This document shows positions 42,675 to 59,818 of a DNA stretch of 64,000 bases, piece by piece; within the stretch, counting starts at the first letter, position 1, and every line of letters starts with the position of its first letter. Under the pieces are notes generated by a model. That model had not been told where the DNA came from and ran no database searches. It saw only the letters and a list, made by a program, of their open reading frames with translations. Source of the DNA: a virus (taxonomy: Duplodnaviria; Caudoviricetes). The translations under genes were made by a program, and so were the position numbers. The stretch is from the IMG/VR virus record IMGVR_UViG_3300008740_000001, positions 139,860 to 203,859 of that record. One strand, 5' to 3'.

Positions 42675-42971
42675 GTGGGTGACTGTGAGACTATCAAGCC
42701 AAAGAAGGGCGATTTAGTAAGGTGGATTTATGATTATGCTTTGTATGCAGCTGACGACAAAGGCAACGCTTGGCCTCACGATCCACAATATGAATACGGC
42801 GTGATCATGGAAGTTTCACACTCAGACCCACATGCCATAATAGTTTTTAGTACAACGACTAAGATGTGGCATGTTGCTCATATGGTTGACGACGACATCG
42901 AAATCATCAGCGAGTCCAGAAACAAGGTGGTGATTCCCACCGCCGAGGAGATCAAGAAGTATGAAAAGTAA
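42675..42971 (+). CDS. Small SH3/KOW-like family protein
   Basis: KKGDLV..YGVI..IEIISESR. Confidence 0.6.
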   Translation: MGDCETIKPKKGDLVRWIYDYALYAADDKGNAWPHDPQYEYGVIMEVSHSDPHAIIVFSTTTKMWHVAHMVDDDIEIISESRNKVVIPTAEEIKKYEK

Positions 42972-43047
42972 ACTTTTCGACGAGATCAGGGGCGAGAATG
43001 AGTTAAAAACTTTGCGCCAAAATTTTCCTCTTTGGCAGACAGGTAGG

Positions 43048-43076
43048 TTGACATGAACGCACAGGCGGGTTATAAT
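43048..43076 (+). promoter_or_regulatory. sigma70-type promoter (leaderless start at 43083)
   Basis: TTGACA-17-TATAAT. Confidence 0.75.
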
Positions 43077-43082
43077 AATGGT

Positions 43083-43271
43083 ATGAATTGGGATAGAATC
43101 ATAGAAGTGGGTGATTTGGTGAAGGTTGTGCCAAGCAGTTATACGCTTAGGGATGAAATACTTACAGGCATCGTGATAAAAAAGATGAAAACCTGCGGGT
43201 TTTTTATCGTTTATCATAATGGTATTTATCACCAAAACGTCCACCTTGAAGAAATGGAGAAGTATCCTTAA
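43083..43271 (+). CDS. Small SH3/KOW-like family protein
   Basis: EVGDLVKV..TGIV. Confidence 0.6.
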   Translation: MNWDRIIEVGDLVKVVPSSYTLRDEILTGIVIKKMKTCGFFIVYHNGIYHQNVHLEEMEKYP

Positions 43272-43456
43272 TGTGGGAAGAAGTGTTTTACAAAGTAAAG
43301 TATCTAGACAAGAGCACAAACGCTTCTATGCAGGCACTCATAAGTGCACCACCATCAAAAACTATTGAGAGAGTACGCGAAATATTATCAGAAGTATATC
43401 CTCGATGGGAAATCGAGAGCATTACGGTGACTCTATATACGCCGATAGACAAGTAA
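43271..43456 (+). CDS. Hypothetical protein
   Basis: TAATG-coupled ORF. Confidence 0.45.
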   Translation: MWEEVFYKVKYLDKSTNASMQALISAPPSKTIERVREILSEVYPRWEIESITVTLYTPIDK

Positions 43457-43483
43457 AATCGTTCCCGCGCCTCTACTTAGTGC

Positions 43484-43801
43484 GTGGGCGATTCAAACAT
43501 AAAAAAGGGCGTGCTTGTGCGCCCTGTGGTATTTTTTAGTCAATGGCTGGGAGTAGTGTTGACCGACCCTGTGCAGTATGTGCCAACCGATAATGAACTG
43601 GAAATGGCCGGTTACGCGCCAACTCAAGAGTTTTATTGGGAAGGGGTCGAAGTTGTCAACGTATATTGGTTTACTGAGGGGATGGCCTCCGAAGAATTTA
43701 TAGACTTTCTGGAGGTAGTGTCGCCACCTGTTGACCACCTCGATGACCCCGATTTTGCTGAAAAAATGTTCAATTTTTACTGGACAGACGACGATGATTA
43801 G
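43484..43801 (+). CDS. SH3/KOW-like family protein
   Basis: KKGVLV..LGVV..VYW..LEVVS. Confidence 0.55.
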   Translation: MGDSNIKKGVLVRPVVFFSQWLGVVLTDPVQYVPTDNELEMAGYAPTQEFYWEGVEVVNVYWFTEGMASEEFIDFLEVVSPPVDHLDDPDFAEKMFNFYWTDDDD

Positions 43802-43834
43802 GTTATAATATACTATGTAATCTAGGAGAGCTTT

Positions 43835-44323
43835 GTGAAAATTGTTTTTTTGCATGGACTGGAATCAAGTCCCAACTCGGCAAAGGTAAAATTTCTGCGC
43901 GAACAAGGTCACGAGGTGCTGGCACCCCGTCTTGATCGAAACGATTGGGAACAGTCTGTTATGGCGGCTCGTGATGCTATCACTGCTTTCCAACCCGATG
44001 TGGTCGTTGGCTCGTCTAGGGGCGGTGCTGTTGCTATGGTCGCAAGAGTCTCACCCATTCCAACAATCCTAATCGCACCTGCATGGAAGAAATACGCGCC
44101 TTGGGCCACCATCAGCGGGAGCACAGTGATTCTTCATTCTTCACAAGACTGGATTGTGCCCTTTGCAGACTCGGAAGAACTCGCCCGTACTTTCGGTGCT
44201 AAACTTTATGACGTTGGCGAGGACCATCGCATGAACGACCCAGAGGCACTTAGTGCCTTGGCTGTGGGCCTTGATTGGCAGGGACATGGCTGGTTTAGTA
44301 AAAATCTTCAAGATAACACTTGA
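43835..44323 (+). CDS. Alpha/beta hydrolase (YqiA-like esterase)
   Basis: FLHGLES, GSSRGG nucleophile elbow, D..VP, DH. Confidence 0.85.
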   Translation: MKIVFLHGLESSPNSAKVKFLREQGHEVLAPRLDRNDWEQSVMAARDAITAFQPDVVVGSSRGGAVAMVARVSPIPTILIAPAWKKYAPWATISGSTVILHSSQDWIVPFADSEELARTFGAKLYDVGEDHRMNDPEALSALAVGLDWQGHGWFSKNLQDNT

Positions 44324-44348
44324 CATTTGAATCTATCTGATATATATT
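44320..44348 (+). promoter_or_regulatory. sigma70-type promoter
   Basis: TTGACA-17-TATATT. Confidence 0.7.
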
Positions 44349-44356
44349 ATAGGTGA

Positions 44357-44623
44357 GTGACAAAAGATATGTCTGACCAACTGATAAATCACGCTAGCGG
44401 ATCGATGCCGCAGCTTACCCTTTTTGAGAGTGCCCAACTAGGACTAATGGCCTTCGTCGGAGGGCTAGCGATGGATGCCCAACTCGATGCCATTATCCCG
44501 ACTATCCGCGAATCAGAGCGTTTGAAGTTGGATGGCACTGTAACCCAACATGAAGTAGCTTTGCTAGACGCCTTTATTGCACAGGCGCTGCGCGATCTGC
44601 CTCCCGTTGCAGAGGATGTATAA
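44357..44623 (+). CDS. Hypothetical protein
   Basis: Downstream of promoter. Confidence 0.5.
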   Translation: MTKDMSDQLINHASGSMPQLTLFESAQLGLMAFVGGLAMDAQLDAIIPTIRESERLKLDGTVTQHEVALLDAFIAQALRDLPPVAEDV

Positions 44624-44898
44624 TGAAAACCGTTATTGTCGTTGACACTGACGATCCAAAGGGGATGGAGAGTACCCGGCGTATTGTGGACAACCTGTTG
44701 ACCACCTATCATCACCGCAGTATTGAAGCCGGTGATCCATTCTCTGGCAAGATCCAGTTCATCAAGCACTTGCGAGCATATGTAAAGTTCTGTGAGGAAA
44801 ACTGGCCCGATGACTGGCAAAATCAGATCGGCAACCTTAAGACCTCGAAGGGATACGCGGATACCCTCAAACTTTTCCAACGTGCAGGTAACCTGTGA
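44623..44898 (+). CDS. Hypothetical protein
   Basis: TAATG-coupled; GAGG RBS. Confidence 0.55.
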   Translation: MKTVIVVDTDDPKGMESTRRIVDNLLTTYHHRSIEAGDPFSGKIQFIKHLRAYVKFCEENWPDDWQNQIGNLKTSKGYADTLKLFQRAGNL

Positions 44899-45116
44899 GT
44901 CAGAGCCAGCACTACTATAATCCGCAAGTGGGCGATTTGGTGCGAATCATCGAGGGTACACACGATCCGAGCATGCCCGAAGATCGTATTGGTCTGATCG
45001 TGGAGATTCTGCAACAGGAACCGGGAGACGCCCCGCGCAGTCACGATACTTTTATGGTCAAGTTTGGCACCCGTACCTTGAAGTTCCACAAGATGTGGCT
45101 TGAAAAAGTCTCTTGA
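44895..45116 (+). CDS. Small SH3/KOW-like family protein
   Basis: QVGDLVRI..IGLIV..LEKVS. Confidence 0.65.
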   Translation: MSQSQHYYNPQVGDLVRIIEGTHDPSMPEDRIGLIVEILQQEPGDAPRSHDTFMVKFGTRTLKFHKMWLEKVS

Positions 45117-45167
45117 CATCTTTTTGACAAAAAACCCCTTGCACCTCGCGCTAGCCTGTGCTATATT
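45113..45167 (+). promoter_or_regulatory. Triple-box promoter copy 1
   Basis: TTGACA-5-TTGACA-9-TTGCAC-17-TATATT. Confidence 0.8.
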
Positions 45168-45192
45168 ATATACATGATTTACGGAGAGTGTC

Positions 45193-45525
45193 ATGTCTGA
45201 TTTTTATGTGAGCCGAATCGACGTTCGGGCTGGTGATCCTACTGCTGGCGAGCCCGCTGTTGTTGCAGAGGAGGTCGTCCTGACCCTCAAAGCGCCATAT
45301 CATGCTGCGGAGCGTAGTTACCAAAAGTTCCGCGCTTTGGGCATTGAGAACATTGGGCTGTACGAGTATTCTTTGAACAAAAAGTCTTACGCGGCTAGCC
45401 TCAAAGCGCAGAAGCGCAGGAAGTTCAAGAAGATCACGCTGGCTGACGTGGCAAAGGATTTGCAAGAGTTTATGGAGGAAGGCAAGCCCGATGCCGATCA
45501 AGAAACACACACTGAAAAGGGGTGA
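45193..45525 (+). CDS. Hypothetical protein
   Basis: GGAG RBS. Confidence 0.55.
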   Translation: MSDFYVSRIDVRAGDPTAGEPAVVAEEVVLTLKAPYHAAERSYQKFRALGIENIGLYEYSLNKKSYAASLKAQKRRKFKKITLADVAKDLQEFMEEGKPDADQETHTEKG

Positions 45526-45715
45526 TCTTGTTCGGCTTCGCACAGGCTGGCCCGAACATTGGCGTTATGGAATCGTGTTGCGAGTGAACAACCACAACCC
45601 TGAATGGCCACACTGTGATATACACTTTTTTCAAACACCAACATCAGAATCAAAACAATCTAACATCAATCAATATCTAACTGGACTGGAGAAGATAAAT
45701 GAGCAACACATTTGA
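45491..45715 (+). CDS. Small SH3/KOW-like family protein
   Basis: KRGDLVRL..YGIV. Confidence 0.6.
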   Translation: MPIKKHTLKRGDLVRLRTGWPEHWRYGIVLRVNNHNPEWPHCDIHFFQTPTSESKQSNINQYLTGLEKINEQHI

Positions 45716-45929
45716 AATCGGTGAGGCTGTCGTGGTCGATACCCGCAACTATTTGCAACACACAGAAGGCATCGTGATTGACGCATCATCGTCGGTCGAT
45801 GGGTGCAGCGAGGATATGTATACGGTCGAGGTCGAAAACCACGGTACGCATTTCTTCTATGGGTCTGATCTCCGAGCGGCAGCACCGGATGAACCTGAAG
45901 AAGAACCGGAGTGGAGGATTGCACTGTGA
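45699..45929 (+). CDS. Small SH3/KOW-like family protein
   Basis: EIGEAV..EGIV..YTVEV. Confidence 0.55.
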   Translation: MSNTFEIGEAVVVDTRNYLQHTEGIVIDASSSVDGCSEDMYTVEVENHGTHFFYGSDLRAAAPDEPEEEPEWRIAL

Positions 45930-46183
45930 AGTTGTCAAGCAAACAGATGCGCTCGCTCCACCAGCTTGTAAAGCACGAGGTGGAAACAATGGGCGCAGCG
46001 TGGAACATTGACGAGGAGGAGTACCAGCAGGACATTCGGGAAGTGTTGGGAGTGATCGAGGCTACGCAATCGCAAAGTAAACTTGTAGCTCAGGCTGCTG
46101 AGACAAGACGAGCCAGAGTTAGTGCAACGTCTGCACCCGAGCAGGTGTGGCCCAAACCAATAAATGATCCCGCCGACTGGTAG
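45911..46183 (+). CDS. Hypothetical protein
   Basis: GGAGG upstream of an internal GTG. Confidence 0.45.
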   Translation: MEDCTVKLSSKQMRSLHQLVKHEVETMGAAWNIDEEEYQQDIREVLGVIEATQSQSKLVAQAAETRRARVSATSAPEQVWPKPINDPADW

Positions 46184-46505
46184 GAGGCAAAAGAATATGC
46201 CAATGTGGAAACTAAACGAGAAGGTTGTTTGTCGTGATGGGTTTGAAGCCAGCATCCAAGCAAATGAAGGTGCATACTGTACGCCAAGAGTCACAGATGC
46301 AGATAACTATACAGCAGTCGAGATCGGCTTTCCAAGCCAGCGAGAAGAACTGATTATAGAATGGGCCGAAGATCCTCACCGCCCGACCGAGACTGTGTAT
46401 GGCTGGGTTCCTGTCGATAGGGCCTCGCTTATGATCGCCAAACATGGAGGCATCGTATCTGGTGAGGTTCCACCCGGTGTCATTCGACTGGAGGCCAAAA
46501 AGTAA
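46164..46505 (+). CDS. Conserved phage hypothetical protein (start probably 46197)
   Basis: C.DGF..SIQA..YC.PR..VEIGFPS..TVYGWVP. Confidence 0.65.
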   Translation: MIPPTGRRQKNMPMWKLNEKVVCRDGFEASIQANEGAYCTPRVTDADNYTAVEIGFPSQREELIIEWAEDPHRPTETVYGWVPVDRASLMIAKHGGIVSGEVPPGVIRLEAKK

Positions 46506-46541
46506 ACTTTGGCATTTCTCAAAGTTGTGAGATTAGATTAT

Positions 46542-46626
46542 GGCGCGGTGGTGGAATCGGTATACACAGCAGACTTAAAATCTGCCGCTTTTTAGCTTGC
46601 GGGTTCGAGTCCCGCCCGCGCTACCA
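46542..46626 (+). tRNA. tRNA-Leu(TAA)
   Basis: Acceptor GGCGCGG/CCGCGCT, anticodon arm GCAGA-CTTAAAA-TCTGC, long variable arm, T arm GCGGG-TTCGAGT-CCCGC, CCA. Confidence 0.95.
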
Positions 46627-46631
46627 TTTTT

Positions 46632-46730
46632 CGCTGCCCTGTTCAGCGGCGGGACTTGCGACCCGCCTTGAAGTGCAGACCGTCACTAGGAGCAGAGGCG
46701 AAGTCTACGGGCTTCGACCTAACCGCTGCT
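46632..46730 (+). ncRNA. Structured RNA in the tRNA-Leu 3' trailer (HDV/theta-ribozyme-like candidate)
   Basis: CAGCGG/CCGCTG, CGGG/CCCG, C(UACG)G-capped 10-bp hairpin, CUAA junction. Confidence 0.5.
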
Positions 46731-46801
46731 GCCACGAATCGGTGCTGGGGGTTTCTTTTTATTCGCTTCTAGTTATTATAGTATAGCTTGGAGGCTTTAT
46801 C

Positions 46802-46984
46802 ATGATTATCATTCCACTTGACAAACTTGAAAAACTACGAATCGAACAAGGCAAGGAGAGGCCAACCGACCGGCCCGCGCTGCAGTTGCCCGTGCCGGAG
46901 CATATGCCAGAAGCAATACACAGCGGGTCGGTTGAGCCGACCGAGGACGAAACCGGTGCTGCAATCATAGATTTCACCCTTTGA
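46802..46984 (+). CDS. Hypothetical protein
   Basis: GGAGG RBS; CTAGTTA upstream. Confidence 0.55.
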   Translation: MIIIPLDKLEKLRIEQGKERPTDRPALQLPVPEHMPEAIHSGSVEPTEDETGAAIIDFTL

Positions 46985-47035
46985 CATTCTCTTGACAACT
47001 TGGCTATTGACGCCACACCTCTCGCATGTTATATT
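46981..47035 (+). promoter_or_regulatory. Triple-box promoter copy 2
   Basis: TTGACA-5-TTGACA-9-TTGACG-17-TATATT; ATG 6 nt later. Confidence 0.8.
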
Positions 47036-47041
47036 ATATAC

Positions 47042-47212
47042 ATGAAACGAAGAAAGACAAAGGCACCGAAGTCGCGCAACTGGCTTGCGGTACATGCACG
47101 AATGGACTTGGCCACTGGTGGCGAGCGCAAAGGCGCTGGACCGCACGGAGGCCGGAAGCAGCGTTATAGCCGCAAGGTAAAGCACAAGGGGCGTACTAAT
47201 GAAAGTCGGTGA
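47042..47212 (+). CDS. Small basic protein
   Basis: K/R-rich; leaderless start at 47042. Confidence 0.55.
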   Translation: MKRRKTKAPKSRNWLAVHARMDLATGGERKGAGPHGGRKQRYSRKVKHKGRTNESR

Positions 47213-47360
47213 TCTGATCATGTCGAAAGACGGATACCATACTGCGCTAGTGGTGAGTATTGTCGGAGCCGCTGCTTTCAACCGCATCAAAGTGCTGGTT
47301 GTTGGCAGCGACACGCCCGAAATGTGCGATCCGAGAATGTGGGAGGTTATAAGTGGATAG
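47199..47360 (+). CDS. Small SH3/KOW-like family protein (53 aa, not in ORF track)
   Basis: MKVGDLIMS..ALVV..WEVISG. Confidence 0.65.
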   Translation: MKVGDLIMSKDGYHTALVVSIVGAAAFNRIKVLVVGSDTPEMCDPRMWEVISG

Positions 47361-47481
47361 CCTGCCTCAAACTCCCTTGGTGGCTTTTCTTTACATCTTT
47401 GCCTTCATAGGTCTTGGCATATTGATTAGTCAGGCCAGTCATATTTTATACGACATTTGGGAAGATTGGAGGAAGAAGTGA
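47353..47481 (+). CDS. Small membrane peptide (42 aa)
   Basis: Hydrophobic core; GGAGG upstream; overlaps both neighbours. Confidence 0.45.
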   Translation: MDSLPQTPLVAFLYIFAFIGLGILISQASHILYDIWEDWRKK

Positions 47482-47561
47482 GAAGTATATTGGTAACTAT
47501 TGGAATCGTGGTAACGATTTTCGTGCTTTCGTTTGCTATTACATTGGCGCTAACAGCATGA
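47478..47561 (+). CDS. Small membrane peptide (27 aa)
   Basis: GTGA/ATGA coupling; GGAGG upstream; almost entirely hydrophobic. Confidence 0.45.
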   Translation: MRSILVTIGIVVTIFVLSFAITLALTA

Positions 47562-47758
47562 AAGTCGGTGATTTGGTGCGCCCAACAGACAGAAACCTTC
47601 TATCGGGAAGCCGACGAGTTGGCATTGTTGTGCATGTGGATACCGGATGGGATAACAAACAAGTAAGAGTAAAGTGGGACATCCCCTCGTGGATGGACGA
47701 TGAGGGTTTGGCGTCTGAATCTCCCGAGAACCTAGAGGTGATCAGTGAAAGTCGGTGA
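47558..47758 (+). CDS. Small SH3/KOW-like family protein
   Basis: MKVGDLV..VGIV..VKW..LEVISESR. Confidence 0.75.
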   Translation: MKVGDLVRPTDRNLLSGSRRVGIVVHVDTGWDNKQVRVKWDIPSWMDDEGLASESPENLEVISESR

Positions 47759-47906
47759 CTTGGTTCGACATTGGTTGACAGAACAACTCGGTATTATCCT
47801 CGATGTTGGGTTTCACAATATCAGGGTTCAGTGGCTAGATGAGATCGTCTTTGGTGTTGAAGAACTTGATCCTCGCAACGTGGAGGTGGTCAGTGAAGCC
47901 CGGTGA
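47745..47906 (+). CDS. Small SH3/KOW-like family protein (53 aa, not in ORF track)
   Basis: MKVGDLVRH..LGII..VQW..VEVVSEAR. Confidence 0.7.
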   Translation: MKVGDLVRHWLTEQLGIILDVGFHNIRVQWLDEIVFGVEELDPRNVEVVSEAR

Positions 47907-48081
47907 TCTGGTAAGGCATTCCGAGCCTGTGGACCGGGCTGAGTTTGATGCTGTTGGTGTTGTTGTTGAGATTCAAGAAGATTGGATGAAGAACTGGTCA
48001 AAAGTAAAAGTAATGTGGACCGGCCTTCAGGTTCCAGTATGGGAACCAATCCGCTGCGTCAAACTCTTTACATCCTCTTGA
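47893..48081 (+). CDS. Small SH3/KOW-like family protein
   Basis: MKPGDLVRH..VGVV..VMW. Confidence 0.7.
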   Translation: MKPGDLVRHSEPVDRAEFDAVGVVVEIQEDWMKNWSKVKVMWTGLQVPVWEPIRCVKLFTSS

Positions 48082-48121
48082 CAAGATTCTTGTTGACAGC
48101 CACAAACCCTTGTGCTATAAT
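48067..48121 (+). promoter_or_regulatory. Triple-box promoter copy 3
   Basis: TTTACA-5-TTGACA-9-TTGACA-17-TATAAT. Confidence 0.8.
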
Positions 48122-48146
48122 ACATAGGTAAATCGGAGAACACACC

Positions 48147-48485
48147 ATGAATATCGAACTAACCGAAGATGAGATTATCATGATCCTTGACTGCATTGGA
48201 GCACGGATTGAGGATCTTCAAGAAACCTTGGCATGGACACCTGATTGCGGCGAATCTGCCGATCAGCTATCCGCATTGGCCGATCTGGATATGGACTTGC
48301 GCGAGCAGTCCAACCGGCGGGACGATGGCTGGAATGACGAAGTGACTGAAACCTTTACGACGAACCTAGTCCAGTCTGCCATCGACGACTGGCAATCAAA
48401 AGTAACCTCTAGCTCGAAGGCCGCCAGCAGGCGGCAGGCCCGGTGGCTAGGACTGAACCGAACAACCAACAAAGGGAATGAATAG
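48147..48485 (+). CDS. Hypothetical protein
   Basis: GGAG RBS. Confidence 0.55.
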   Translation: MNIELTEDEIIMILDCIGARIEDLQETLAWTPDCGESADQLSALADLDMDLREQSNRRDDGWNDEVTETFTTNLVQSAIDDWQSKVTSSSKAASRRQARWLGLNRTTNKGNE

Positions 48486-48486
48486 C

Positions 48487-48681
48487 ATGGCGATTTGCAT
48501 CGAATGTGAAGAAGAATACAACGACAAGCGGAAAGCCTTGGGCTACCGCACTTGCTTGGACTGTGGAGGTCGAGCAGCAAACAGGACCATCCGGGCCCGA
48601 AACGCTGCCAGCTTGCGGGCTATGACCCCGAACCACTACGAAGGCAGCGTGGAGGATATGTTTGACAAGCGCCCCTCTTGA
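48487..48681 (+). CDS. DksA/TraR-type C4 zinc-finger-like protein
   Basis: CIECEEEY..KRKALGYRTCLDCG. Confidence 0.55.
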   Translation: MAICIECEEEYNDKRKALGYRTCLDCGGRAANRTIRARNAASLRAMTPNHYEGSVEDMFDKRPS

Positions 48682-48685
48682 AGCC

Positions 48686-48740
48686 TTGACATTTACTTGA
48701 CAAGAAATGCCTTGCCATCTAGTGCAGGGCATGATATATT
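48686..48740 (+). promoter_or_regulatory. Triple-box promoter copy 4
   Basis: TTGACA-5-TTGACA-9-TTGCCA-17-TATATT; ATG 6 nt later. Confidence 0.8.
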
Positions 48741-48746
48741 ATATAC

Positions 48747-49031
48747 ATGAGCCAAAGGAGAAATCTCATGATGCCTGACTACGATCCAGATTTTCAAGTC
48801 TACACCGATATGGAGCAGTGTAACCGCTTTGAAGCCTCGTACTTTGATCACGAGGCCGAGTTGGTTGTTGCAGCATCTACCCTTCTGGAGTCGAAAGGAC
48901 CGGGCGGCTATGATGCTTCGCATACCGAGTTTTTGTCACAGTTTGGTTCAGGCACACTGGTGCTTCGTCGCACTAGCGAACAGTGCCCCGGCTGGTGGCG
49001 TGTTCACAACTTTATCCCGACGAGGTGGTAA
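48747..49031 (+). CDS. Hypothetical protein
   Basis: Downstream of promoter. Confidence 0.55.
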   Translation: MSQRRNLMMPDYDPDFQVYTDMEQCNRFEASYFDHEAELVVAASTLLESKGPGGYDASHTEFLSQFGSGTLVLRRTSEQCPGWWRVHNFIPTRW

Positions 49032-49337
49032 ATGGAACTTTGGGTCATGACAGGTACATATAACGGCGAACATTTCGCCACAACCCACTTGACCGAAGTC
49101 GGAGCATTGAAATCAATGATCTTCGACGTACTCCAGTTTCTTGGCATCGAGGAAGAAGAACATGCGAGAGCAGATCCCGACGCAGCAGAAAAGCCAGACT
49201 TGGAGTGGAGCCCGCAAGTGATTGGAGAAATGGAAGTTGATGAACTGCGGTCCCTAATGCGTAAGTACCACCAATACACTTGGGACAACTGCGAAGGGTA
49301 CTCCATAGAAATATGCCGGTGCCAACTGGAAGCATGA
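49032..49337 (+). CDS. Hypothetical protein
   Basis: GAGGTG RBS. Confidence 0.6.
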   Translation: MELWVMTGTYNGEHFATTHLTEVGALKSMIFDVLQFLGIEEEEHARADPDAAEKPDLEWSPQVIGEMEVDELRSLMRKYHQYTWDNCEGYSIEICRCQLEA

Positions 49338-49564
49338 TTAGTAAACTTAGCCGACAACCACGGCGCAGCTTTGCGCCCCGACGCAGCAAGGCCCCGAGAA
49401 TGGGGGATGTGGTGATCCATAAAGTTGATAAGTCTCTCGGTGTGGGTCTGGTTATGGAATGCTGGGGGATCGATTGCTTGGTTCAATGGGCCAAAACAAT
49501 CGTGGAGCCAGATCCATGCTGGCATCGCCGCGTCAAGCTAGAGGTGATTAGTGAAAGTCGGTGA
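49334..49564 (+). CDS. Small SH3/KOW-like family protein
   Basis: MGDVV..VGLV..VQW..LEVISESR. Confidence 0.7.
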   Translation: MISKLSRQPRRSFAPRRSKAPRMGDVVIHKVDKSLGVGLVMECWGIDCLVQWAKTIVEPDPCWHRRVKLEVISESR

Positions 49565-50019: not shown

Positions 50020-50206
50020 TTTGGTCGAAGTTAGGCGTATTCTGGGTGTGGGCGATGGGTTTCATCCACGGCGACGGGGCATAGTTCTGCAAACGACAGC
50101 GGCGATTTCTGACAACGATCCCAAAGGTGTTCTGGTGATGATCAACGACGGAGTTGAGGCTAGCGAGTGGTATGCTTGGCAACTTGAAATGATTAGTGAA
50201 AAGTAA
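50000..50206 (+). CDS. Small SH3/KOW-like family protein
   Basis: KKGDLVEV..RGIV..LEMISEK. Confidence 0.7.
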   Translation: MTYKKGDLVEVRRILGVGDGFHPRRRGIVLQTTAAISDNDPKGVLVMINDGVEASEWYAWQLEMISEK

Positions 50207-50260
50207 ACTTTGACATCTGAGTTTCTCCGCCGAGACTACTTACAAGCGACGAGGTGAAAA

Positions 50261-52106: not shown

Positions 52107-52142
52107 AGTAAACTTTATAGCAACCAAAAACAGGATCATAAC

Positions 52143-52448: not shown

Positions 52449-52454
52449 ATAGAT

Positions 52455-52999: not shown

Positions 53000-53249
53000 T
53001 CTTGTCGAAATCACGCGAGCATCGGTCGGCATCCCAGCCGGAACGGTTGCTCTGATCATTGAGAAGTACGAAACAGGCGCGTCATTGGATGACTGGCAGG
53101 CGACGATCTTTGTCGTTTGGCCGACTGGCGAAGTTGGCAAGCGTGGAGCGCGACGATACCTTGCGCGGGATCTAGATGTGATCAGCAGACCCTTGAAAAG
53201 TAAACTTGTAGCTCCGCTTCAGACAGAGGTTCCGGGCAAAAATGCTTGA
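52986..53249 (+). CDS. Small SH3/KOW-like family protein
   Basis: MQPGDLVEI..ALII..VVW..LDVIS. Confidence 0.7.
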   Translation: MQPGDLVEITRASVGIPAGTVALIIEKYETGASLDDWQATIFVVWPTGEVGKRGARRYLARDLDVISRPLKSKLVAPLQTEVPGKNA

Positions 53250-53452: not shown

Positions 53453-53453
53453 A

Positions 53454-53798
53454 ATGGCATATTTGACAAAAGACGATATTGTGATCATCAAGAACGGATC
53501 TGACACTTTGCAATCGCGGGTGATGGATGTTCGCTTTCGCCGCTACCGTAGTAGCTACAAGGATCGCAAGACCGGCAAGAAGAAAACTCGAATGAAATCA
53601 ATGCCTTACGCTGTTTGTTCAGTGTTCATTGGCACATCCGTCCCGGCTGGGACCGAGTTTCTGATCCCCGGCTACAAGCTGCGGAACGAGGTCAAGGATG
53701 GAGAAAAGCTGTTGCTGCTCCGCGACCAGTACGCCGCCGAGTTTGATGGCGCATGGGTCGAGAAGATTCTGACCGAAAGCAAGGAAAAGCGAGTATGA
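53454..53798 (+). CDS. Basic hypothetical protein
   Basis: GAGGAG RBS supports start at 53454. Confidence 0.6.
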   Translation: MAYLTKDDIVIIKNGSDTLQSRVMDVRFRRYRSSYKDRKTGKKKTRMKSMPYAVCSVFIGTSVPAGTEFLIPGYKLRNEVKDGEKLLLLRDQYAAEFDGAWVEKILTESKEKRV

Positions 53799-54007
53799 TC
53801 GTCGGTGGCTTGTATAAGTTTGAGTGCACTGCTGCGGTGACCGTGAATGGTCGGATGGCTCTTTACTTGGGCGAGGATTTCATCCATCGAGACGATGGCG
53901 TAACTGTCGAGAATCACAAGGTTTTGTTGGTTGGCGAGTCAGGCCCCACAATCATTGATCGTGGCCTGTTGAAGCACATGAGTCCAATCGCACGGGAGCA
54001 AGAGTAA
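53795..54007 (+). CDS. Small SH3-like protein
   Basis: ATGA-coupled; MIVGGLYK. Confidence 0.55.
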   Translation: MIVGGLYKFECTAAVTVNGRMALYLGEDFIHRDDGVTVENHKVLLVGESGPTIIDRGLLKHMSPIAREQE

Positions 54008-54011
54008 ACTT

Positions 54012-54305
54012 ATGAGATGTTGCAACGATGCCGTCATCGAGAAATGGGCCAATGGTTTGCCCGCGAAGAACCATCGAGGTAGCCTGACCGCTGACGAGGA
54101 TGGAGCACTGTGGAGTTACGATCTGAAGATCGGCCAACGTACCGGCGATGCCTGTATCGTTGCAGACTTTACCGCGCCCGCTGGCGGGTTTCGGAGTATG
54201 ACCACAAGCCAGCACATCGGCAAGGCTCGTTTCCATGCGGATCTGGTGATGCACCCGACCGTATGGGCCACCTCGCCTCTGTCCAACAGGTTCTATCAGG
54301 CTTGA
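54012..54305 (+). CDS. Conserved hypothetical protein
   Basis: LWSYDLKIG..SMTTSQH. Confidence 0.6.
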   Translation: MRCCNDAVIEKWANGLPAKNHRGSLTADEDGALWSYDLKIGQRTGDACIVADFTAPAGGFRSMTTSQHIGKARFHADLVMHPTVWATSPLSNRFYQA

Positions 54306-54356
54306 CATTCTCTTGACAAAGAACCTGTTGACATGATGCCTCCTGCATGGTATATT
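54302..54356 (+). promoter_or_regulatory. Triple-box promoter copy 9
   Basis: TTGACA-5-TTGACA-9-TTGACA-17-TATATT. Confidence 0.85.
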
Positions 54357-54386
54357 ATAGGGGTAAATGAGGCAAAGGAGTAAGCC

Positions 54387-54593
54387 ATGAACGAGAACGT
54401 ACCGACCCCGACCCCCTTTGAGGCGACCGCACTGGCGTGCGAGAACATGATCACGTCGTTTGGTGTGCTGTCTAGCATGCTCGCAGCGCAAGAAGGTGCT
54501 CGCAGTAATGTGGAGGTTCAGACGATGATCTCAACCATGCTTGAAGCCTCGGCTAGCATCTTCGCCGCGATGGGCGCGGCAGCGGAGGCATAG
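54387..54593 (+). CDS. Hypothetical helical protein
   Basis: AGGAG RBS. Confidence 0.55.
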   Translation: MNENVPTPTPFEATALACENMITSFGVLSSMLAAQEGARSNVEVQTMISTMLEASASIFAAMGAAAEA

Positions 54594-54636
54594 AGTGTAC
54601 TCAAAATCAAGATATGTAGTACCCGAAGCGGTAGGC

Positions 54637-54804
54637 ATGATCGGAGCATTGGTCAAGCCGAAGATCGCATCGAAGGGTTGTCGCACCGGGATCCATATCG
54701 TGATGGAATACCGGGTCAGCAAGTCAGGCGAGCGAGTAAACTTTGCCGGGAACCCCGACGAGTGGCACAACCTAGAAAACTTTGAGATCGTGAGTCGAAA
54801 GTGA
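54637..54804 (+). CDS. Small SH3/KOW-like family protein
   Basis: MIGALV..FEIVS. Confidence 0.5.
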   Translation: MIGALVKPKIASKGCRTGIHIVMEYRVSKSGERVNFAGNPDEWHNLENFEIVSRK

Positions 54805-54807
54805 TGC

Positions 54808-54862
54808 TTGACATTCTCTTGACAAAGATTCTGTTGACATTGAAACAACCACCTGCTATAAT
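54808..54862 (+). promoter_or_regulatory. Triple-box promoter copy 10
   Basis: TTGACA-5-TTGACA-9-TTGACA-17-TATAAT. Confidence 0.85.
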
Positions 54863-54905
54863 GTATATGTAAGGTTGAGAAACACCCGAGACTAGAGAGG
54901 TAATC

Positions 54906-55772
54906 ATGGGAAACTACGCTGGAACCGTCCGATGTGGACACTGCTATCAACGAGGCCACAACAAGGCTGGCTGTCCAAAGCGCAAAGAGCGCGTGGAGAA
55001 ACTTCGGGAGACTGACCCCGGTAACTGGCAGGTTCAGCGTGCTGATCAAGAACGAGAAGCGCGGGTTGCGCGAGCAAAGAAGCCTCGGACCTGCACCTAT
55101 TGCAAGGCTAACCGGAAAACTGTTTCTTACTATCGTTATGACGATCTGGATGACGCCGAGAAAAACGCACTGGTCCGTGCCAGTGAAGATTCATACGATG
55201 ACTGGATCGAGAAAGACACGCTCTATGGCACAGGCAGCGAGCGCGGCCTAAGCCACTCAATCCGTGCGTGTAAGTATCGGAAGCGCGACCTTGCCGAAGC
55301 TACCGAGAGCACGGCAAAGATGCGTCAGGCGATTCTGGAGCGCATGAAGGCGACCGGGCTGGGCCTAGGCGCAGGTATCGACTTTGCGGAAGATTCCCAC
55401 GCTGCTAGCAGCTATGGTCAAGGTGGACAGATGGTTGTCACTGGAATCCAGTGGGATCGAATCACCAGCGTCATCGAGAGCAGTATCCACAATCAAGAAC
55501 TTGTAGACCTGACTAATGTTCGCTATCTCATGAGCCACAACAAGCCATACGATGCGGTCTGCCGCGCCATCCTACCGAACAATGTCACGGGTTCCGACAC
55601 CCAGCACAGCCGCTACTCTGAATACATCGACCGGGTTGCACATCCGGTCAGTGCCGAGAAGATCGATAGTCAAGTGCCCGATGGTTGGCTTGAAGCAACA
55701 TCTGATGCCACTCAATCGTTCATCGGTCAGTACCTTGATCGGAACGTCAAGAGTCGGCACCGTAACAACTGA
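54906..55772 (+). CDS. Zinc-knuckle-containing protein
   Basis: CGHCYQRGHNKAGC (CX2CX4HX4C), plus CTYC and H..RAC. Confidence 0.65.
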   Translation: MGNYAGTVRCGHCYQRGHNKAGCPKRKERVEKLRETDPGNWQVQRADQEREARVARAKKPRTCTYCKANRKTVSYYRYDDLDDAEKNALVRASEDSYDDWIEKDTLYGTGSERGLSHSIRACKYRKRDLAEATESTAKMRQAILERMKATGLGLGAGIDFAEDSHAASSYGQGGQMVVTGIQWDRITSVIESSIHNQELVDLTNVRYLMSHNKPYDAVCRAILPNNVTGSDTQHSRYSEYIDRVAHPVSAEKIDSQVPDGWLEATSDATQSFIGQYLDRNVKSRHRNN

Positions 55773-55790
55773 TTAGTAAACTTTCACAAT

Positions 55791-55812
55791 GCTCGCCCCG
55801 AGAGGGGCGGGC
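55791..55812 (+). terminator. GC-rich GNRA hairpin (terminator or processing element)
   Basis: GCTCGCCCC-GAGA-GGGGCGGGC. Confidence 0.5.
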
Positions 55813-55867
55813 TTGACATTCTCTTGACAAGAAATCTCTTGATCTTTCAGACTGCCTATGGTACTAT
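55813..55867 (+). promoter_or_regulatory. Triple-box promoter copy 11
   Basis: TTGACA-5-TTGACA-9-TTGATC-17-TACTAT. Confidence 0.8.
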
Positions 55868-55894
55868 GTATAGGTAATCGAGAGGAACACACAC

Positions 55895-56737
55895 ATGGCC
55901 CGAATCACCTACCGCACTCGCCTTCAAGACTTGCTAGCCAAGCCCTACCTGCCTTCGGGCGAACGGCGCTTTGCCCAATCGTTGCTCGACCACTACAATC
56001 GCAAGGGCTACATGAGCGCAGGCCGCGCCCGTTGTGTGCGTCAGATGGAGGAGCGTTATGCGACTGCGCCTGTGGTCAATAGTAACCTTGTGGCGGAACT
56101 CGATAATCTGCGGAATCGGATCGAGGCTGGCAATCCGGGCTACGAGGCTAGCTGGGATCACAACTTTGTAAAGTCTCTGACCGAGCAGGCGCAAGCTGGC
56201 CGCGATCTGTCCGAACGTCAGAAAGAGATTCTTGAAAAACTCAAAGGTCGGTGGAGCGAGGAGGCAACCGCTAGCGCAGCAGCATGGCGCACCGGGTTCA
56301 CCTCCGAGCAGCGCGAGCGATTCAACGTGATGGTTGACTACTACGCGACAAGTGGATATTATGGGAGCATTGTCGAGGCTAGCAAGAGTAACCCTAGCTT
56401 CACCCCGACCGAGAAGCAGTATCGCGCTGTGACCGAAAACAAGTACGCGATGAAGATTCTCGCAGGTTGGGAGGGCGCTCAAAAGTACGCGACTGGCAGC
56501 ATGGTTGCAGTCCGTAAGGGTGCGCCAATGGCTCTCAGGCTGGCTTGTGGCGGGAACGCGGCACCTAACCCGGTCGTCATCGTAGGAGCCAACACAAGGG
56601 CCCCCACCAGTGCTTGCCGAGGCAACAAGATTTACAAGGTGCTGCCGGTTGGCAACGCCCAGACTTTCGAGGTAGAGGAACGCCATCTGAAGCGCGTCCC
56701 AGCTTCAATCACCAAGCGGAAGAAAAAGAGGGCTTGA
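55895..56737 (+). CDS. Conserved phage hypothetical protein with C-terminal SH3-like domain
   Basis: FVKSLTEQ..LSERQKEIL; C-terminal TGSMV..YKVLP..EERHLK; GAGG RBS. Confidence 0.7.
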   Translation: MARITYRTRLQDLLAKPYLPSGERRFAQSLLDHYNRKGYMSAGRARCVRQMEERYATAPVVNSNLVAELDNLRNRIEAGNPGYEASWDHNFVKSLTEQAQAGRDLSERQKEILEKLKGRWSEEATASAAAWRTGFTSEQRERFNVMVDYYATSGYYGSIVEASKSNPSFTPTEKQYRAVTENKYAMKILAGWEGAQKYATGSMVAVRKGAPMALRLACGGNAAPNPVVIVGANTRAPTSACRGNKIYKVLPVGNAQTFEVEERHLKRVPASITKRKKKRA

Positions 56738-56788
56738 CATACTCTTGACAAGAAACCCCTTGATCTTTTCCCCCCCGCATGCTATATT
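56734..56788 (+). promoter_or_regulatory. Triple-box promoter copy 12
   Basis: TTGACA-5-TTGACA-9-TTGATC-17-TATATT. Confidence 0.8.
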
Positions 56789-56845
56789 ATATATGTAAGG
56801 TGAGAGAACGCCTCCCACCCACTTCAACAAAGAGAGAGAGAAAAA

Positions 56846-57919
56846 ATGGCTGTTGACTTCAAAACCTTCCTCGCGTGTGTCCGTCCTGTGATTGATGCTC
56901 GCTTCCCTATCCTCGTTCGCGGTCGTCATGGCGTCGGCAAGTCGCAAGTCGTCTATCAAGTGGCTGGCGATCTTGGCCTGCCTGTGGTCGAGCGACGAGC
57001 CAGCCAGATGACCGAAGGCGACCTGCTGGGTCTGCCCGACAATCGTGATGTGCTGGTGAATGGCCGCAAGGCTACCACCTTCAACCCGCCGGAGTGGTTC
57101 CTGACCGCTTGTACCGAGCCTGTCGTCCTGTTCTTGGATGAGGTTGATCGTGCGACCACGGAGGTCCGTCAGGGTATCTTTGAGTTGTGCGACAGCCGCA
57201 AGATTGCGGGTAACTCGCTGCACGAGGGTACGATCATCATCGCAGCCGTCAACGGCGGCGAGCACGGTGCCCAGTATCAGGTGGGCGAAATGGACCCTGC
57301 CGAGTTGGACCGCTACACGGTGTTTGATGTTGAGCCTTCCGTCGAGGACTGGCTGACATGGGCAAAGGATAATGTTGATTCTGTCCTGTGGGACTTCATC
57401 AACACCAACCGCCCTCACTTGGAGCATGGCGGCGACTTTGAGCCAAACAAGGTCTACCCTTCCCGACGCTCTTGGGACCGTCTGAACCAGACTGTGACCC
57501 CGCTGGGCGTGTTTGAGGAAGGTGGCGACCTTGATGTGCTGTTCAACCTCTCTAGCGCGTTCTGCGGCTTTGAGGCTGCGGTAGCGATTCGTGACTTTGT
57601 TGCTTCCTATGACCGTCAGGTGACTATCGAGGACATTCTTGACGATGGTAAGATCGACAAGACTACTGATTGGACGATCAACGAGCACTCTGCACTGGTC
57701 GAGAAGATGGAAGCATCTGAAACCTTCAAGGCAGAACTGACCGACGATCAGATCGTCAACCTTGCCCGCTGGTTTGTAACCTTGCCGAGTGAGGTAGCCA
57801 TGAAGCTGTGGACCGTCCTTGGTGATGGTGATGTTCAGAACGTCATCCGCACCCACCAGTCCACCACTCCCGAAGGTGTTGCGATCAGCGATCACCTCGT
57901 GACCATCCTTGGGGGCTAA
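56846..57919 (+). CDS. MoxR-like AAA+ ATPase
   Basis: Walker A GRHGVGKS, EGDLLGLP, Walker B LFLDEVDRA, AVN, DPAELDR, PSRRSW. Confidence 0.9.
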   Translation: MAVDFKTFLACVRPVIDARFPILVRGRHGVGKSQVVYQVAGDLGLPVVERRASQMTEGDLLGLPDNRDVLVNGRKATTFNPPEWFLTACTEPVVLFLDEVDRATTEVRQGIFELCDSRKIAGNSLHEGTIIIAAVNGGEHGAQYQVGEMDPAELDRYTVFDVEPSVEDWLTWAKDNVDSVLWDFINTNRPHLEHGGDFEPNKVYPSRRSWDRLNQTVTPLGVFEEGGDLDVLFNLSSAFCGFEAAVAIRDFVASYDRQVTIEDILDDGKIDKTTDWTINEHSALVEKMEASETFKAELTDDQIVNLARWFVTLPSEVAMKLWTVLGDGDVQNVIRTHQSTTPEGVAISDHLVTILGG

Positions 57920-57933
57920 ACACCCCCGTAAGG

Positions 57934-58017
57934 GCCTCAAGGTGGTCGTTCAGGGCTCTCTCTCTCAACAACCATACCCTGACACCACCTTGAGGCTCCT
58001 TGCCCTAGAAGGGCAAA
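57934..58017 (+). other. Long intergenic hairpin with CU-repeat loop plus second hairpin
   Basis: 13-bp GCCTCAAGGTGGT/ACCACCTTGAGGC + 6-bp TCAGGG/CCCTGA; TTGCCCT-AGA-AGGGCAA. Confidence 0.65.
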
Positions 58018-58052
58018 GAGTAACCTTTCTGAGAACTGAGAGAGAAAAACGC

Positions 58053-58107
58053 TTTACACATTCTTGACAACTTTTCCCTTGATCTTTGCTCCCGAGCATG
58101 CTATATT
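58053..58107 (+). promoter_or_regulatory. Triple-box promoter copy 13
   Basis: TTTACA-5-TTGACA-9-TTGATC-17-TATATT. Confidence 0.8.
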
Positions 58108-58146
58108 ATATATGTAAGGTTGAGCTACACCCTCTAGGAGATTTCT

Positions 58147-59442
58147 ATGACCACGCCCGCGAAAACTACTGCCCTTCCAGACGCCATCGACGCGGAGATC
58201 AACGCGGAGAACGAGGAAACTCCCGTGTTTGATCTCAACATGCACGCGGCAAGGCTGCTGATGAAGGAACCTTTCTTTGCTGCCCTCTCACGGCGGATCA
58301 ACAAGAAGGCAACCCGTGCGATCCCGACTGCTGGCGTGACTGTCACTGAAGATGGTCAGTTTGAGTTGCTTTATAACCCCGACTTCATGGGCAAGCTGGA
58401 AGATCCTCACAAGCTGGGCGTGCTGAAGCACGAGTTTTACCACTTGATCTTTGAGCATGTGACGGGCAACCGCTTCGCACACTTCCGCGACTTGTCTGGT
58501 CCCGAACGTCGCTTGCACAATATCGGTATGGATCTTGCGATCAACAGTCACCTTCGCGGCGAGTTGCCCAAAGAGTGCTGCATGCCCGGTGAAGGCCCAT
58601 TCGCAGAGTATGAATCTTTCTTGTCTGCCGAGCAGTATATTGCGAAGCTGCGCGAGAAGCAGGAGGAAAATGAAGGCGGCGAGGGTGACGAAGGCGAGGG
58701 CGAAGGACAGCCCGGTGATGGCGAGGGATCTGGTCAAGGTCAGGGCGACGGTCAGTTTGACAGCCATGACGGTTGGGGCGAAGCAGGATCGGGCTCCGAG
58801 CAGATCGCACAAGAGCGATTGAAGGACACGATCCGCAAGGCTGCCGAGGAAGCTGATCGCTCGCGCTCTTGGGGCACGGTGTCTAGCAGTGTCCGAGAGG
58901 AGATCCGTAAGGCTCTCTCGACTCATGTAGACTGGAAAAAGGTTCTTCGATACTTCATCAAGACCAGCCAGCGAGCCAACAAGCGGAGCACGGTGCGCCG
59001 ACTCAACCGACGTTACCCACGCATCCACGCTGGCAGCAAGGTCAACCGTCAAGCGAAGATCGCGATCAGCATCGATCAGTCTGGTTCTGTTGATGACGCT
59101 ATGCTCTCCGCTTTCTATGCCGAGCTTGATAAGCTGGCGCAGCTTGCCGAGTTTACTGTGATCCCATTCGATACCGAGGTTGCAGTGGATCATGTATACG
59201 TCTGGAAGAAAGGCGAGCGTCGGAAGGCCGAGCGTGTGCGCTACGGTGGCACCGACTTCAACCCGCCAACGAAATACGTCAACGAACTGAACTTTGACGG
59301 TCACATCGTGCTGACTGATCTTTGCGCTCCGAAGCCGATTTCTTCCACTTGTCAACGGATGTGGATGACCACTCGCTACTATGCCGAACACCCCTACTTC
59401 AAGACCAACGAAATGATCGTTGCGATTGACACGGAACAGTAA
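58147..59442 (+). CDS. Metallopeptidase-like (DUF2201-type) plus vWA domain protein
   Basis: TAGV, HEFYH (HExxH), DLAIN, acidic Gly linker, DSHDGW, MIDAS IDQSGS, GGTDF, LTD. Confidence 0.88.
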   Translation: MTTPAKTTALPDAIDAEINAENEETPVFDLNMHAARLLMKEPFFAALSRRINKKATRAIPTAGVTVTEDGQFELLYNPDFMGKLEDPHKLGVLKHEFYHLIFEHVTGNRFAHFRDLSGPERRLHNIGMDLAINSHLRGELPKECCMPGEGPFAEYESFLSAEQYIAKLREKQEENEGGEGDEGEGEGQPGDGEGSGQGQGDGQFDSHDGWGEAGSGSEQIAQERLKDTIRKAAEEADRSRSWGTVSSSVREEIRKALSTHVDWKKVLRYFIKTSQRANKRSTVRRLNRRYPRIHAGSKVNRQAKIAISIDQSGSVDDAMLSAFYAELDKLAQLAEFTVIPFDTEVAVDHVYVWKKGERRKAERVRYGGTDFNPPTKYVNELNFDGHIVLTDLCAPKPISSTCQRMWMTTRYYAEHPYFKTNEMIVAIDTEQ

Positions 59443-59812
59443 AGTGTCGAGAACAGAGATCGAGACGTTTATGACACCGGGCAAGTTATATATGCTTCGC
59501 GGTGTCAACAAAAACAAGAAATGGAACAGAATGGTGGTACATAAGGGATACGGCGACAAGGCCCAGCTATTCCTAGGCGAGTATCGTAGCTACCACAACT
59601 GTGACTTTTATGGTGATGGCGAGGTATTTCTTTGTGTATCAGTCACCCCGTCCGAAAAGCTGTCAGGCTCTCCGAGCAGCTATACACAGTATTGGACACA
59701 GGCATATGCAGACCTGCTAGCACCGAACGGGAAGATCGTCACCCTGCAACTAGCAGGAAACAAGACAAAGTTCCGAGAGGTCAAGAGCAAGAAGCCGAGG
59801 ACACAAGAGTAA
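59420..59812 (+). CDS. Hypothetical protein (start probably 59471)
   Basis: MTPGKLY..GEVFLCV. Confidence 0.55.
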   Translation: MRLTRNSKVSRTEIETFMTPGKLYMLRGVNKNKKWNRMVVHKGYGDKAQLFLGEYRSYHNCDFYGDGEVFLCVSVTPSEKLSGSPSSYTQYWTQAYADLLAPNGKIVTLQLAGNKTKFREVKSKKPRTQE

Positions 59813-59818
59813 ACTTAT

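Follow-up and report, generated by a model that had tools for sequence, protein, structure and literature searches.

A strand-polar nine-nucleotide word at cistron ends in the early gene block of a roughly 200-kb marine phage, with lineage-specific versions in its relatives

The DNA considered here, called the window, is a stretch of 64,000 nucleotides (positions 139,860 to 203,859) that forms the final 64 kb of the 203,859-bp virus record IMGVR_UViG_3300008740_000001 (Duplodnaviria; Caudoviricetes), a phage genome with a 119-bp terminal repeat, hereafter the source phage or G000; positions are those of the window unless another genome is named. The element in question is a nine-nucleotide word, AGTAAACTT, repeated in the early gene block at 42967-59816. 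Replication functions are encoded upstream of this cluster, namely a DNA polymerase, a DnaB-like helicase, a ribonucleotide reductase, a UvsX-like recombinase and GroEL. The cluster coincides with an early block of 50-54% G+C of the hyperplastic kind, a term used for the promoter-dense, shuffled early regions of T4-type phages (PMC2839356, PMC4122927). About 15 strong, co-directional sigma-70-type promoters with repeated TTGACA boxes are found in it, together with arrays of small paralogous genes, a tRNA-Leu(UAA) and a structured RNA of 190 nt. Canonical terminators were not detected in the block; terminator-like sites are no commoner there than in shuffled sequences, and none coincides with the word.

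Exact copies of AGTAAACTT were counted on both strands, in the window and then in the full 204-kb record, using dinucleotide shuffles as the null for the window and Markov models of orders 1-4 fitted to 42967-59816 as the null for the cluster. The window holds 13 copies on the + strand and none on the - strand, against a shuffle mean of 0.51 and a maximum of 3 (both strands combined). Within 42967-59816 lie 11 of the 13, where the Markov models expect 0.05-0.6, an enrichment of 20- to 200-fold; a preliminary description of the window, made from its letters alone, had reported these 11 copies in about 17 kb as far above expectation, and this is borne out. It had noticed one copy outside the cluster where there are two, missing that at 35528, and a single variant, AGTAACCTT, which is present at 58019 and has a second, intragenic occurrence at 56081. 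The absence of reverse-strand copies that it had noted holds for the window and not for the whole genome: the genome-wide count on both strands that it had proposed as a check gave 17 + and 3 - copies, all three - copies lying outside the window. The word nevertheless stays skewed and local, 11 of the 17 + copies falling in about 8% of the genome (about 17 kb), and the six + copies outside the cluster, across the whole genome, all lie inside open reading frames (ORFs) and resemble background. The copies of the window, with the variant and degenerate ones that accompany them, are as follows.

21776..21784, + strand: exact copy outside the cluster, within an ORF; probably chance or codon-driven
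35528..35536, + strand: exact copy outside the cluster, in frame in a 1416-aa gene; probably chance
42967..42975, + strand: copy whose TAA stops gene 42675-42971 (98 codons); -35 box 72 nt downstream
46076..46084, + strand: copy inside gene 45926-46183, read as Ser-Lys-Leu
46501..46509, + strand: copy whose TAA stops gene 46198-46505; tRNA-Leu(UAA) from 46542, 33 nt downstream
49340..49348, + strand: copy 2 nt past the TGA that ends gene 49032-49337; followed by a hairpin and a paralog array
50202..50210, + strand: copy whose TAA stops the array's last gene, 50000-50206; next gene 50 nt downstream
52107..52115, + strand: copy at the 3' edge of the 190-nt RNA; ATG of the gene at 52143 27 nt downstream
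53199..53207, + strand: copy within paralog 52986-53249, in a lineage-specific extension of its C-terminus; promoter box 1 38 nt downstream
54003..54011, + strand: copy whose TAA stops gene 53795-54007; abuts the ATG of gene 54012-54305
54735..54743, + strand: copy inside paralog 54595-54804, in frame +1, 21 codons before the stop; promoter 64 nt downstream
55775..55783, + strand: copy 2 nt past the TGA of gene 54906-55772; a GC hairpin, then a promoter
57917..57921, + strand: partial copy TAAAC, stop of the AAA-ATPase gene
58019..58027, + strand: variant AGTAACCTT in the AAA-ATPase/DUF2201 spacer; hairpin just before, promoter 25 nt after
59438..59446, + strand: degenerate copy AGTAAAGTG, stop of the DUF2201 gene
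59808..59816, + strand: copy whose TAA stops gene 59446-59812; ATG of the gene at 59819 2 nt on
60886..60894, + strand: degenerate copy CGTAACACT, stop of gene 60558-60890

Cistron boundaries account for 8 of the 11 cluster copies, against 12% of positions expected, which on a hand-made gene list gives a P of about 5e-6, or about 7e-5 once the frame excluded by the TAA is allowed for. The TAA of the word is the gene stop in five copies (42967, 46501, 50202, 54003 and 59808, ending ORFs of 98, 113, 68, 84 and 130 codons), 49340 and 55775 start 2 nt past a TGA stop, as TGAttAGTAAACTT, and 52107 closes the 190-nt RNA, bases 52107-52110 completing its perfect 12-bp closing stem. What lies downstream varies: promoter boxes follow at 25-72 nt in five of the 12 copies including the variant (42967, 53199, 54735, 55775 and 58019), and other copies are followed by a start codon at 0-51 nt, by the tRNA at 33 nt or by a hairpin. 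With so variable a downstream context, the constant partner of the word is the end of the upstream unit and not the start of the next. Within operons it occupies junctions without the usual ATGA/GTGA overlap; over half of the copies are intra-operon and far from any promoter, and in this block none lies between a promoter -10 element and the first ATG, nor do any of the roughly 15 promoters contain the word. The preliminary description had presented the word as a mark of module boundaries, and this stands, both on these counts and through conservation at the orthologous seams described below; equally sound were its remarks on the five TAA stops, on the copies just before tRNA-Leu and at the end of the 190-nt RNA, and on copies ahead of promoters, a distance that it had put at 30-75 nt.

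Beyond about 3 nt the flanks are unrelated except within sub-groups, and nothing is related beyond about 12 nt. Copies 46076 and 53199 have an 18-nt tract, AAAGTAAACTTGTAGCTC, in common, GATT stands upstream of 49340, 52107 and 55775, and both 54003 and 59808 have CAAG upstream and AT downstream. No secondary structure is common to the copies; hairpins often flank the word. The quasi-palindrome AAGT-AA-ACTT to which the preliminary description drew attention is found in 5 of the 11 copies, and neither the other copies nor the versions in related phages keep it.

The comparison set comprised the complete genomes G001-G005 (about 200 kb each, AAA ATPase 60-74% identical) and 66 IMG/VR stretches with the same promoter word. 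Exact AGTAAACTT occurs at background level only in G001-G005, in the 66 stretches and in 80 metagenome loci, and a 14-nt extended pattern searched in IMG/VR returned single chance hits only. Exact counts had thus suggested a word unique to the source phage, an idea abandoned when an unbiased k-mer count over the 20-kb early blocks of G001-G005 revealed versions of their own. The version of G002 is AAGTTAAACCTT, or (A)AGTTAAACCTT; its early block has TTAAACCTT 14 times and TAAACCTT 15 times on the + strand, the latter against 8 + and 11 - copies in the other 185 kb. That of G003 is (A/T)AATAAACCTT, with nine occurrences on the gene strand of the early block, and that of G001 is ATTAACCTT, with TAACCTTG present eight times. 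G004 has CGTTAAACTT, which is not enriched (loose consensus 7 + and 7 -), and the k-mer count made no version evident in the early block of G005. Ungapped alignment of the versions gives a common core W-A-A-M-C-T-T (WAAMCTT), with TAA in all of them. The loose consensus KWAAMCTT was rejected as a search pattern, being too permissive and catching the codon-driven GAAACCTT.

These versions stand at corresponding seams. After the homologue of gene 49032-49337, G002 has ATGAagtTAAACCTT (its AGTTAAACCTT version) and the source phage ATGAttAGTAAACTT, while G004 shows a plain ATGA overlap without the motif. The G002 orthologue of the 288-aa gene (54906-55772) ends GGT-TAAACCTT, followed by a promoter. 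From the AAA stop to DUF2201, G002 reads TAAACCTT - hairpin - TAAACCTT - promoter and the source phage TAAAC - hairpins - AGTAACCTT - promoter, the AAA stop of G003 reads TAA-a-TAAACCTT, and the full motif lies 0-15 nt past the stop of the DUF2201 orthologue in G002, G003, L248 and G004. At the junction equivalent to 52107, G002 has AGTTAAAGGTT without the RNA; the equivalent of 53199 in relatives is a standard paralog junction, and genes 53795-54007 and 54012-54305 are not adjacent in G001-G004. A promoter-less block of three tRNAs (Leu, Lys, Met) in G003 and L248 is flanked by the word at distances of 1 nt upstream and 3 nt downstream, and the word is found 2 nt before tRNA-Thr in L217 and 7 nt before tRNA-Lys in G001. 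The relatives also use the word inside promoters: TTGACAACT-TAAACCTT-GAC occurs in at least 20 promoters, the word overlapping the start of the -35 box, and in many relatives the 9-nt spacer before -35 is ACTTAAACC, TAAACCTT lying between the second TTGACA box and -35. Promoters with embedded TAAACCTT stand upstream of AAA, DUF2201, the 280-aa and 288-aa genes and others, and two free-standing G002 copies have 13 nt, CAACTTAAACCTT, in common with the promoter version.

Among closer relatives, the nearest genome, G006, has a nucleotide identity of about 78% and a contig without a counterpart of window 18.6-56.6 kb, and a metagenome scan found three short contigs of the G000 lineage (L212, L213 and L214); all four are without the 43-56 kb part. 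In the part that they share, site 58019 reads AGTAACCTT in the source phage, L212, L213 and L214 and AGTAAACTT in G006, with unalignable flanks. At site 59808 the source phage has AGTAAACTT, L213 AGTAAAGTT and G006 AGTAAAGTA, and L214 shows a plain ATGA overlap; at site 60886, the CGTAACACT of the source phage is aligned with an exact AGTAAACTT in G006 (L198:4887). The motif sites in the shared part are orthologous and drift through point changes.

The spacer between the AAA ATPase and DUF2201 genes (57917-58146; L198:1824-2190; L212-L214; G002 16907-17030; G003 13085-13830) is in itself a variable slot, with hairpins in G000 and G002 and a small ORF in G006 and L212; in G003 and L248 it is occupied by three tRNAs together with a small gene. 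Five close genomes conserve a hairpin loop, CTCTCTCTC, and a downstream GAGAGAG in this spacer, which suggests a pseudoknot or long-range pairing. The step from AAA to DUF2201 is also the sole constant gene adjacency between the early blocks of G000 and G001-G004: most early genes in window 42000-60500 have homologues in G001-G004, in an entirely different order.

Other features of the block were recorded alongside. Tandem arrays at 47199-53249 comprise more than 20 small paralogous genes of about 60-90 aa (MKVGDLV ... LEVISESR*), joined through a conserved junction in which they overlap, GTGATTAGTGAAAGTCGGTGA. A comparison of G002 with G003 shows homologous blocks that are reshuffled, their ends overlapping by 17-24 nt precisely at paralog junctions, and the junction therefore looks like a recombination substrate. 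The 190-nt structured RNA (51912-52110) is an insertion relative to G002, where the homologue of gene 51570-51917 is directly followed by the conserved leader of the next gene, AACAGGATCATAACATG; a perfect inverted repeat of 12 bp, TACTAATCGAGG / CCTCGATTAGTA, bounds the insert and takes in the upstream stop codon as well as nucleotides 1-4 of the motif. Directly after tRNA-Leu, window 46627-46760 holds a structured stretch with a U-run at its end; G003 and L248 are without it, tRNA-Lys and tRNA-Met following tRNA-Leu instead. In a search against Rfam, two tRNAs only reached the gathering threshold. Early promoters (window 44319-58107; relatives L217-L291 and G001-G003) have, ahead of the real -35, two additional TTGACA-like boxes. 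The 288-aa protein of gene 54906-55772, 27-41% identical across relatives, matches no family and has an N-terminal retroviral-type zinc knuckle, C-X2-C-X4-H-X4-C (CGHCYQRGHNKAGC); encoded in the block rich in the motif, it is a candidate for a protein that binds single-stranded nucleic acid.

Several readings of the word were tried and rejected. A late, middle or MotA-box promoter does not fit, the next start lying 0-51 nt away and the 5' ends of tRNAs in relatives 1-2 nt away, and there is neither a -10 element 11-13 nt downstream nor a -35 partner. No common RNA hairpin was found and no GC-rich hairpin plus U-tract goes with the word, as an intrinsic terminator would require, and the mini-hairpin AAG-UAAA-CUU forms in some copies only and is not kept in the other versions. 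Pairing with a guide RNA was dismissed after the non-coding RNAs of the window yielded no complementary 8-9-mer, G:U pairs allowed. A coding origin (Ser-Lys-Leu, or the N-terminus of the downstream protein) is contradicted by the differing frames, only some copies being in frame with a neighbour gene. Origin from truncated promoters was likewise discarded, since free-standing copies are without upstream TTGACA boxes, though in relatives the word serves as a promoter spacer. A gene-60-type translational bypass across the 50-nt gaps is incompatible with the frames. An integron attC or core site, for which an imperfect palindrome of 57-141 bp with core and inverse core would be needed together with an integrase, was excluded by the lack of a shared extended inverted repeat and by flanks unrelated beyond about 12 nt. 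The Chi-like cue for cassette exchange suggested in the preliminary description fits poorly as far as Chi is concerned, the word being local and tied to stops, not genome-wide, in the source phage and likewise in G002 and G003; cassette exchange at the word is possible and is weighed below.

Across the clade, the core element WAAMCTT lies in sense orientation where cistrons or expression units of the early block have their 3' edge. Finding the word at orthologous seams, in lineage versions, marks it as functional. Judged by sequence comparison, AGTAAACTT is the lineage version of a maintained, conserved, polar cis element, and not a product of chance or paralogy or a scar, and by the same comparison the element is a conserved control or punctuation signal in a clade of roughly 200-kb marine phages. 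How it works is less certain, and we tentatively prefer, at less than even confidence, to see in it an end-of-cistron punctuation signal read in early transcripts. Reading at the RNA level, followed by cleavage or factor binding, comprises steps that we infer: many strong promoters without intervening terminators would yield long read-through transcripts, on which the word would be an unstructured, single-stranded docking site for a phage or host RNA-binding factor or endoribonuclease, and the docked factor would separate or inactivate parts of these transcripts in a mode comparable to that of RNase III sites on the early transcript of T7 or of RegB sites on early T4 mRNAs. The sense-only polarity, the unstructured context between hairpins and the flanking of tRNAs and the small RNA fit a signal of this type. 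Because promoter-less tRNAs lie beside the word, read-through must occur, which fits a processing site and not a transcription stop. Of the RNA cleavage or termination signal envisaged in the preliminary description, an RNA-level signal is thus viable, whereas an efficient terminator is unlikely, tRNAs lying 1-33 nt downstream and hairpin and U-tract being absent.

A number of observations weigh against such an end-of-cistron signal in RNA. Three of the cluster copies (46076, 53199 and 54735) are inside ORFs. The sense-strand word is not avoided outside the cluster, with 6 + copies against about 1 expected, nor is TAAACCTT avoided in G002 outside its early block (8 sense copies); a nuclease guided by sequence alone would therefore hit later mRNAs too, barring limits of context or timing. 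The word inside the promoters of relatives is more easily explained by a reader acting on DNA. Finally, family searches, run without a positive control, found no RegA or RegB homologue, and the RegB family PF10715 of Pfam matched nothing in G000, G001, G002, G003 and G005, the control genomes being likewise unmatched.

That reader on DNA would be a phage or host DNA-binding protein, for which the word would be an operator where it overlaps a -35 box and, at the ends of units, an insulator or roadblock. We regard this as rather unlikely, despite a strict orientation to transcription, a position at gene junctions and lineage versions, all properties of stoperators, and despite the 8-13-nt word that overlies -35 in the promoters of several genes in relatives and the 13 nt that free-standing and promoter copies of G002 have in common. 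The promoters of the source phage are all without it, the promoter-less tRNAs 1-7 nt downstream of the word require read-through, sense-strand copies are not avoided in later genes, and neither a repressor candidate nor a sign of a temperate lifestyle was identified. The regulator site named in the preliminary description is viable as well. Unlikelier again is a translational element, that is, a stop codon in a favoured 3' context which uncouples cistrons, an enhancer or standby site for the next cistron, or both. The TAA is invariant across versions and is a working stop in 5 of 11 copies in G000 and about 4-5 of 15 in G002, intra-operon copies sit at junctions without ATGA/GTGA overlap, and many copies in G002 and G003 precede a start codon with a normal Shine-Dalgarno (SD) sequence by 11-41 nt. 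Yet copies before promoters, tRNAs or hairpins, or in non-coding spacers (58019), serve no cistron, the distance to the next start ranges over 0-51 nt, and half of the copies have a TAA that is out of frame or preceded by another stop.

The word could instead be a recombination joint, a microhomology or recognition site at which early cassettes are excised and inserted, each travelling with one copy, and this we consider about as unlikely as the site on DNA. It would explain why the gene order of the block is thoroughly shuffled among relatives, why junctions of the types A|word|X, D|word|X and D|word|Y each have one copy, and why the AAA-DUF2201 spacer is a slot with different inserts between two copies; homology to relatives stops 0-5 nt from the word at several gene ends, the flank AGCCGACA lies downstream of both 49340 and G002 8048 beside different neighbour genes, and a UvsX-like recombinase is encoded. 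However, nearly all junctions are rearranged, word or no word, and the apparent exchange substrates are the paralog junctions, where the block ends of G002 and G003 overlap by 17-24 nt, and promoters. Every lineage that uses the word retains it at the best-conserved adjacency, that of AAA and DUF2201, and orthologous copies change in place through point substitutions, a combination that indicates that the word itself is under selection. No site-specific recombinase was seen, an integrase not having been searched for systematically. Absence of function, with the copies due to chance, codon usage or remnants of duplicated gene ends or promoter fragments, is very improbable: shared flanks (46076/53199; GATT at 49340, 52107 and 55775) betray some copy-paste history and the copies outside the cluster are intragenic, but the enrichment, the spread over different reading frames and unrelated neighbour genes, and the orthologous conservation amid diverged flanks in five genomes, and also between clades with AAA proteins of 60-74% identity, speak against it. 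The readings are not mutually exclusive, since a functional signal at unit ends is also a spot where viable recombinants join.

A wider form of the end-of-cistron signal, on which we are more doubtful than on the signal itself, is a lineage-tuned punctuation code, WAAMCTT plus TAA, used throughout a widespread clade and read by a dedicated phage factor. Orthologous retention combined with lineage spelling points to a specific, co-evolving reader, which might be an RNA endonuclease or binder with 8-9-nt specificity, or a DNA-binding gatekeeper acting also at -35 boxes; the code would define, insulate and perhaps mobilise cassettes of early genes, tRNAs and small RNAs. If this were true, it would be a new system of early-region regulation in lytic phages and no mere variant of RegB, promoter-early stem-loops (PeSLs) or stoperators, and the identity of the reader would show how early transcription is cut, shut off or insulated without the known tools of T4. 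Early hyperplastic regions hold the fastest-evolving host-takeover genes of large lytic phages, and the expression and reshuffling of early gene sets are known for a few coliphages only. In abundant uncultured marine phages the word offers a simple, searchable signal for where early cistrons, tRNA blocks and small RNAs end, and knowledge of its reader would also provide a marker with which unit boundaries could be annotated in phage genomes from metagenomes; on a trivial reading, such as stop-codon context, it would be a useful annotation rule and little more.

We found no description of this element in the literature, including similar motifs in T4-like phages, and it was therefore set beside known systems of related kinds. 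The T7 early transcript is made by host RNA polymerase from strong promoters and is punctuated by double-stranded RNase III hairpin sites, which resemble the word in lying between cistrons and differ from it in their structure, the word having none that is conserved. The epsilon translational enhancer of T7 gene 10 is UUAACUUUA, and the word presumably resembles it in its letters (UUAAACUU, GUAAACUUU), being G-poor, A/U-rich and in some copies upstream of an SD sequence, but many copies have no downstream cistron. Chi sites are comparably short, over-represented, strand-polar and lineage-specific, though genome-wide and not tied to gene ends, and the recombination joint considered above can be likened to the PeSL model or to integron core sites.

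T4 RegB cuts the 11-nt consensus GG*AGRAYARAA in intergenic regions of early mRNAs (PMC3014915). Like the word, RegB sites are short, on the sense strand, confined to early genes, mostly intergenic and unstructured, with a consensus that is long (11 nt) for a nuclease; they are, however, SD sequences at cistron starts, with GGAG/U, whereas the word has no GGAG, lies at cistron ends, includes a stop codon and is unrelated in sequence. PeSLs combine a sigma-70 early promoter with a stem-loop and are described as beginning at the upstream stop codon, within an AT-rich stretch ahead of the promoter (PMC2839356, PMC4122927). The likeness lies in the hyperplastic, sigma-70-rich early block with shuffled ORFan cassettes, in the upstream stop (8 of 11 copies at stops or unit ends) and in the five copies 25-72 nt before promoters; in contrast, the word has neither promoter hexamers nor a stem-loop, a promoter is found within 72 nt downstream of only 5 of the 12 copies, and an exact 8-9-mer with lineage versions is a feature not described in the cited PeSL papers. 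As regards the indels associated with PeSLs, block ends between G002 and G003 fall at paralog junctions and promoters, and the close relatives are without the 43-56 kb part. The stoperators and operators of Cluster A mycobacteriophages are one-way sites with lineage versions (PMC6550527, PMC9283540). They share with the word asymmetry, a single orientation to transcription, location in short intergenic spaces or overlapping stops, many copies and lineage versions, and the overlap with -35 that belongs to an operator role is present in the promoters of relatives and absent from those of G000. Stoperators nonetheless measure 12-14 bp against a core of 8-9 for the word, which is confined to one block of the genome, and the phages are apparently lytic. 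A stoperator has a cognate monomeric repressor, encoded by the phage, that blocks elongation; no candidate for one was identified here, and tRNAs directly downstream of the word need read-through, which argues against a tight block.

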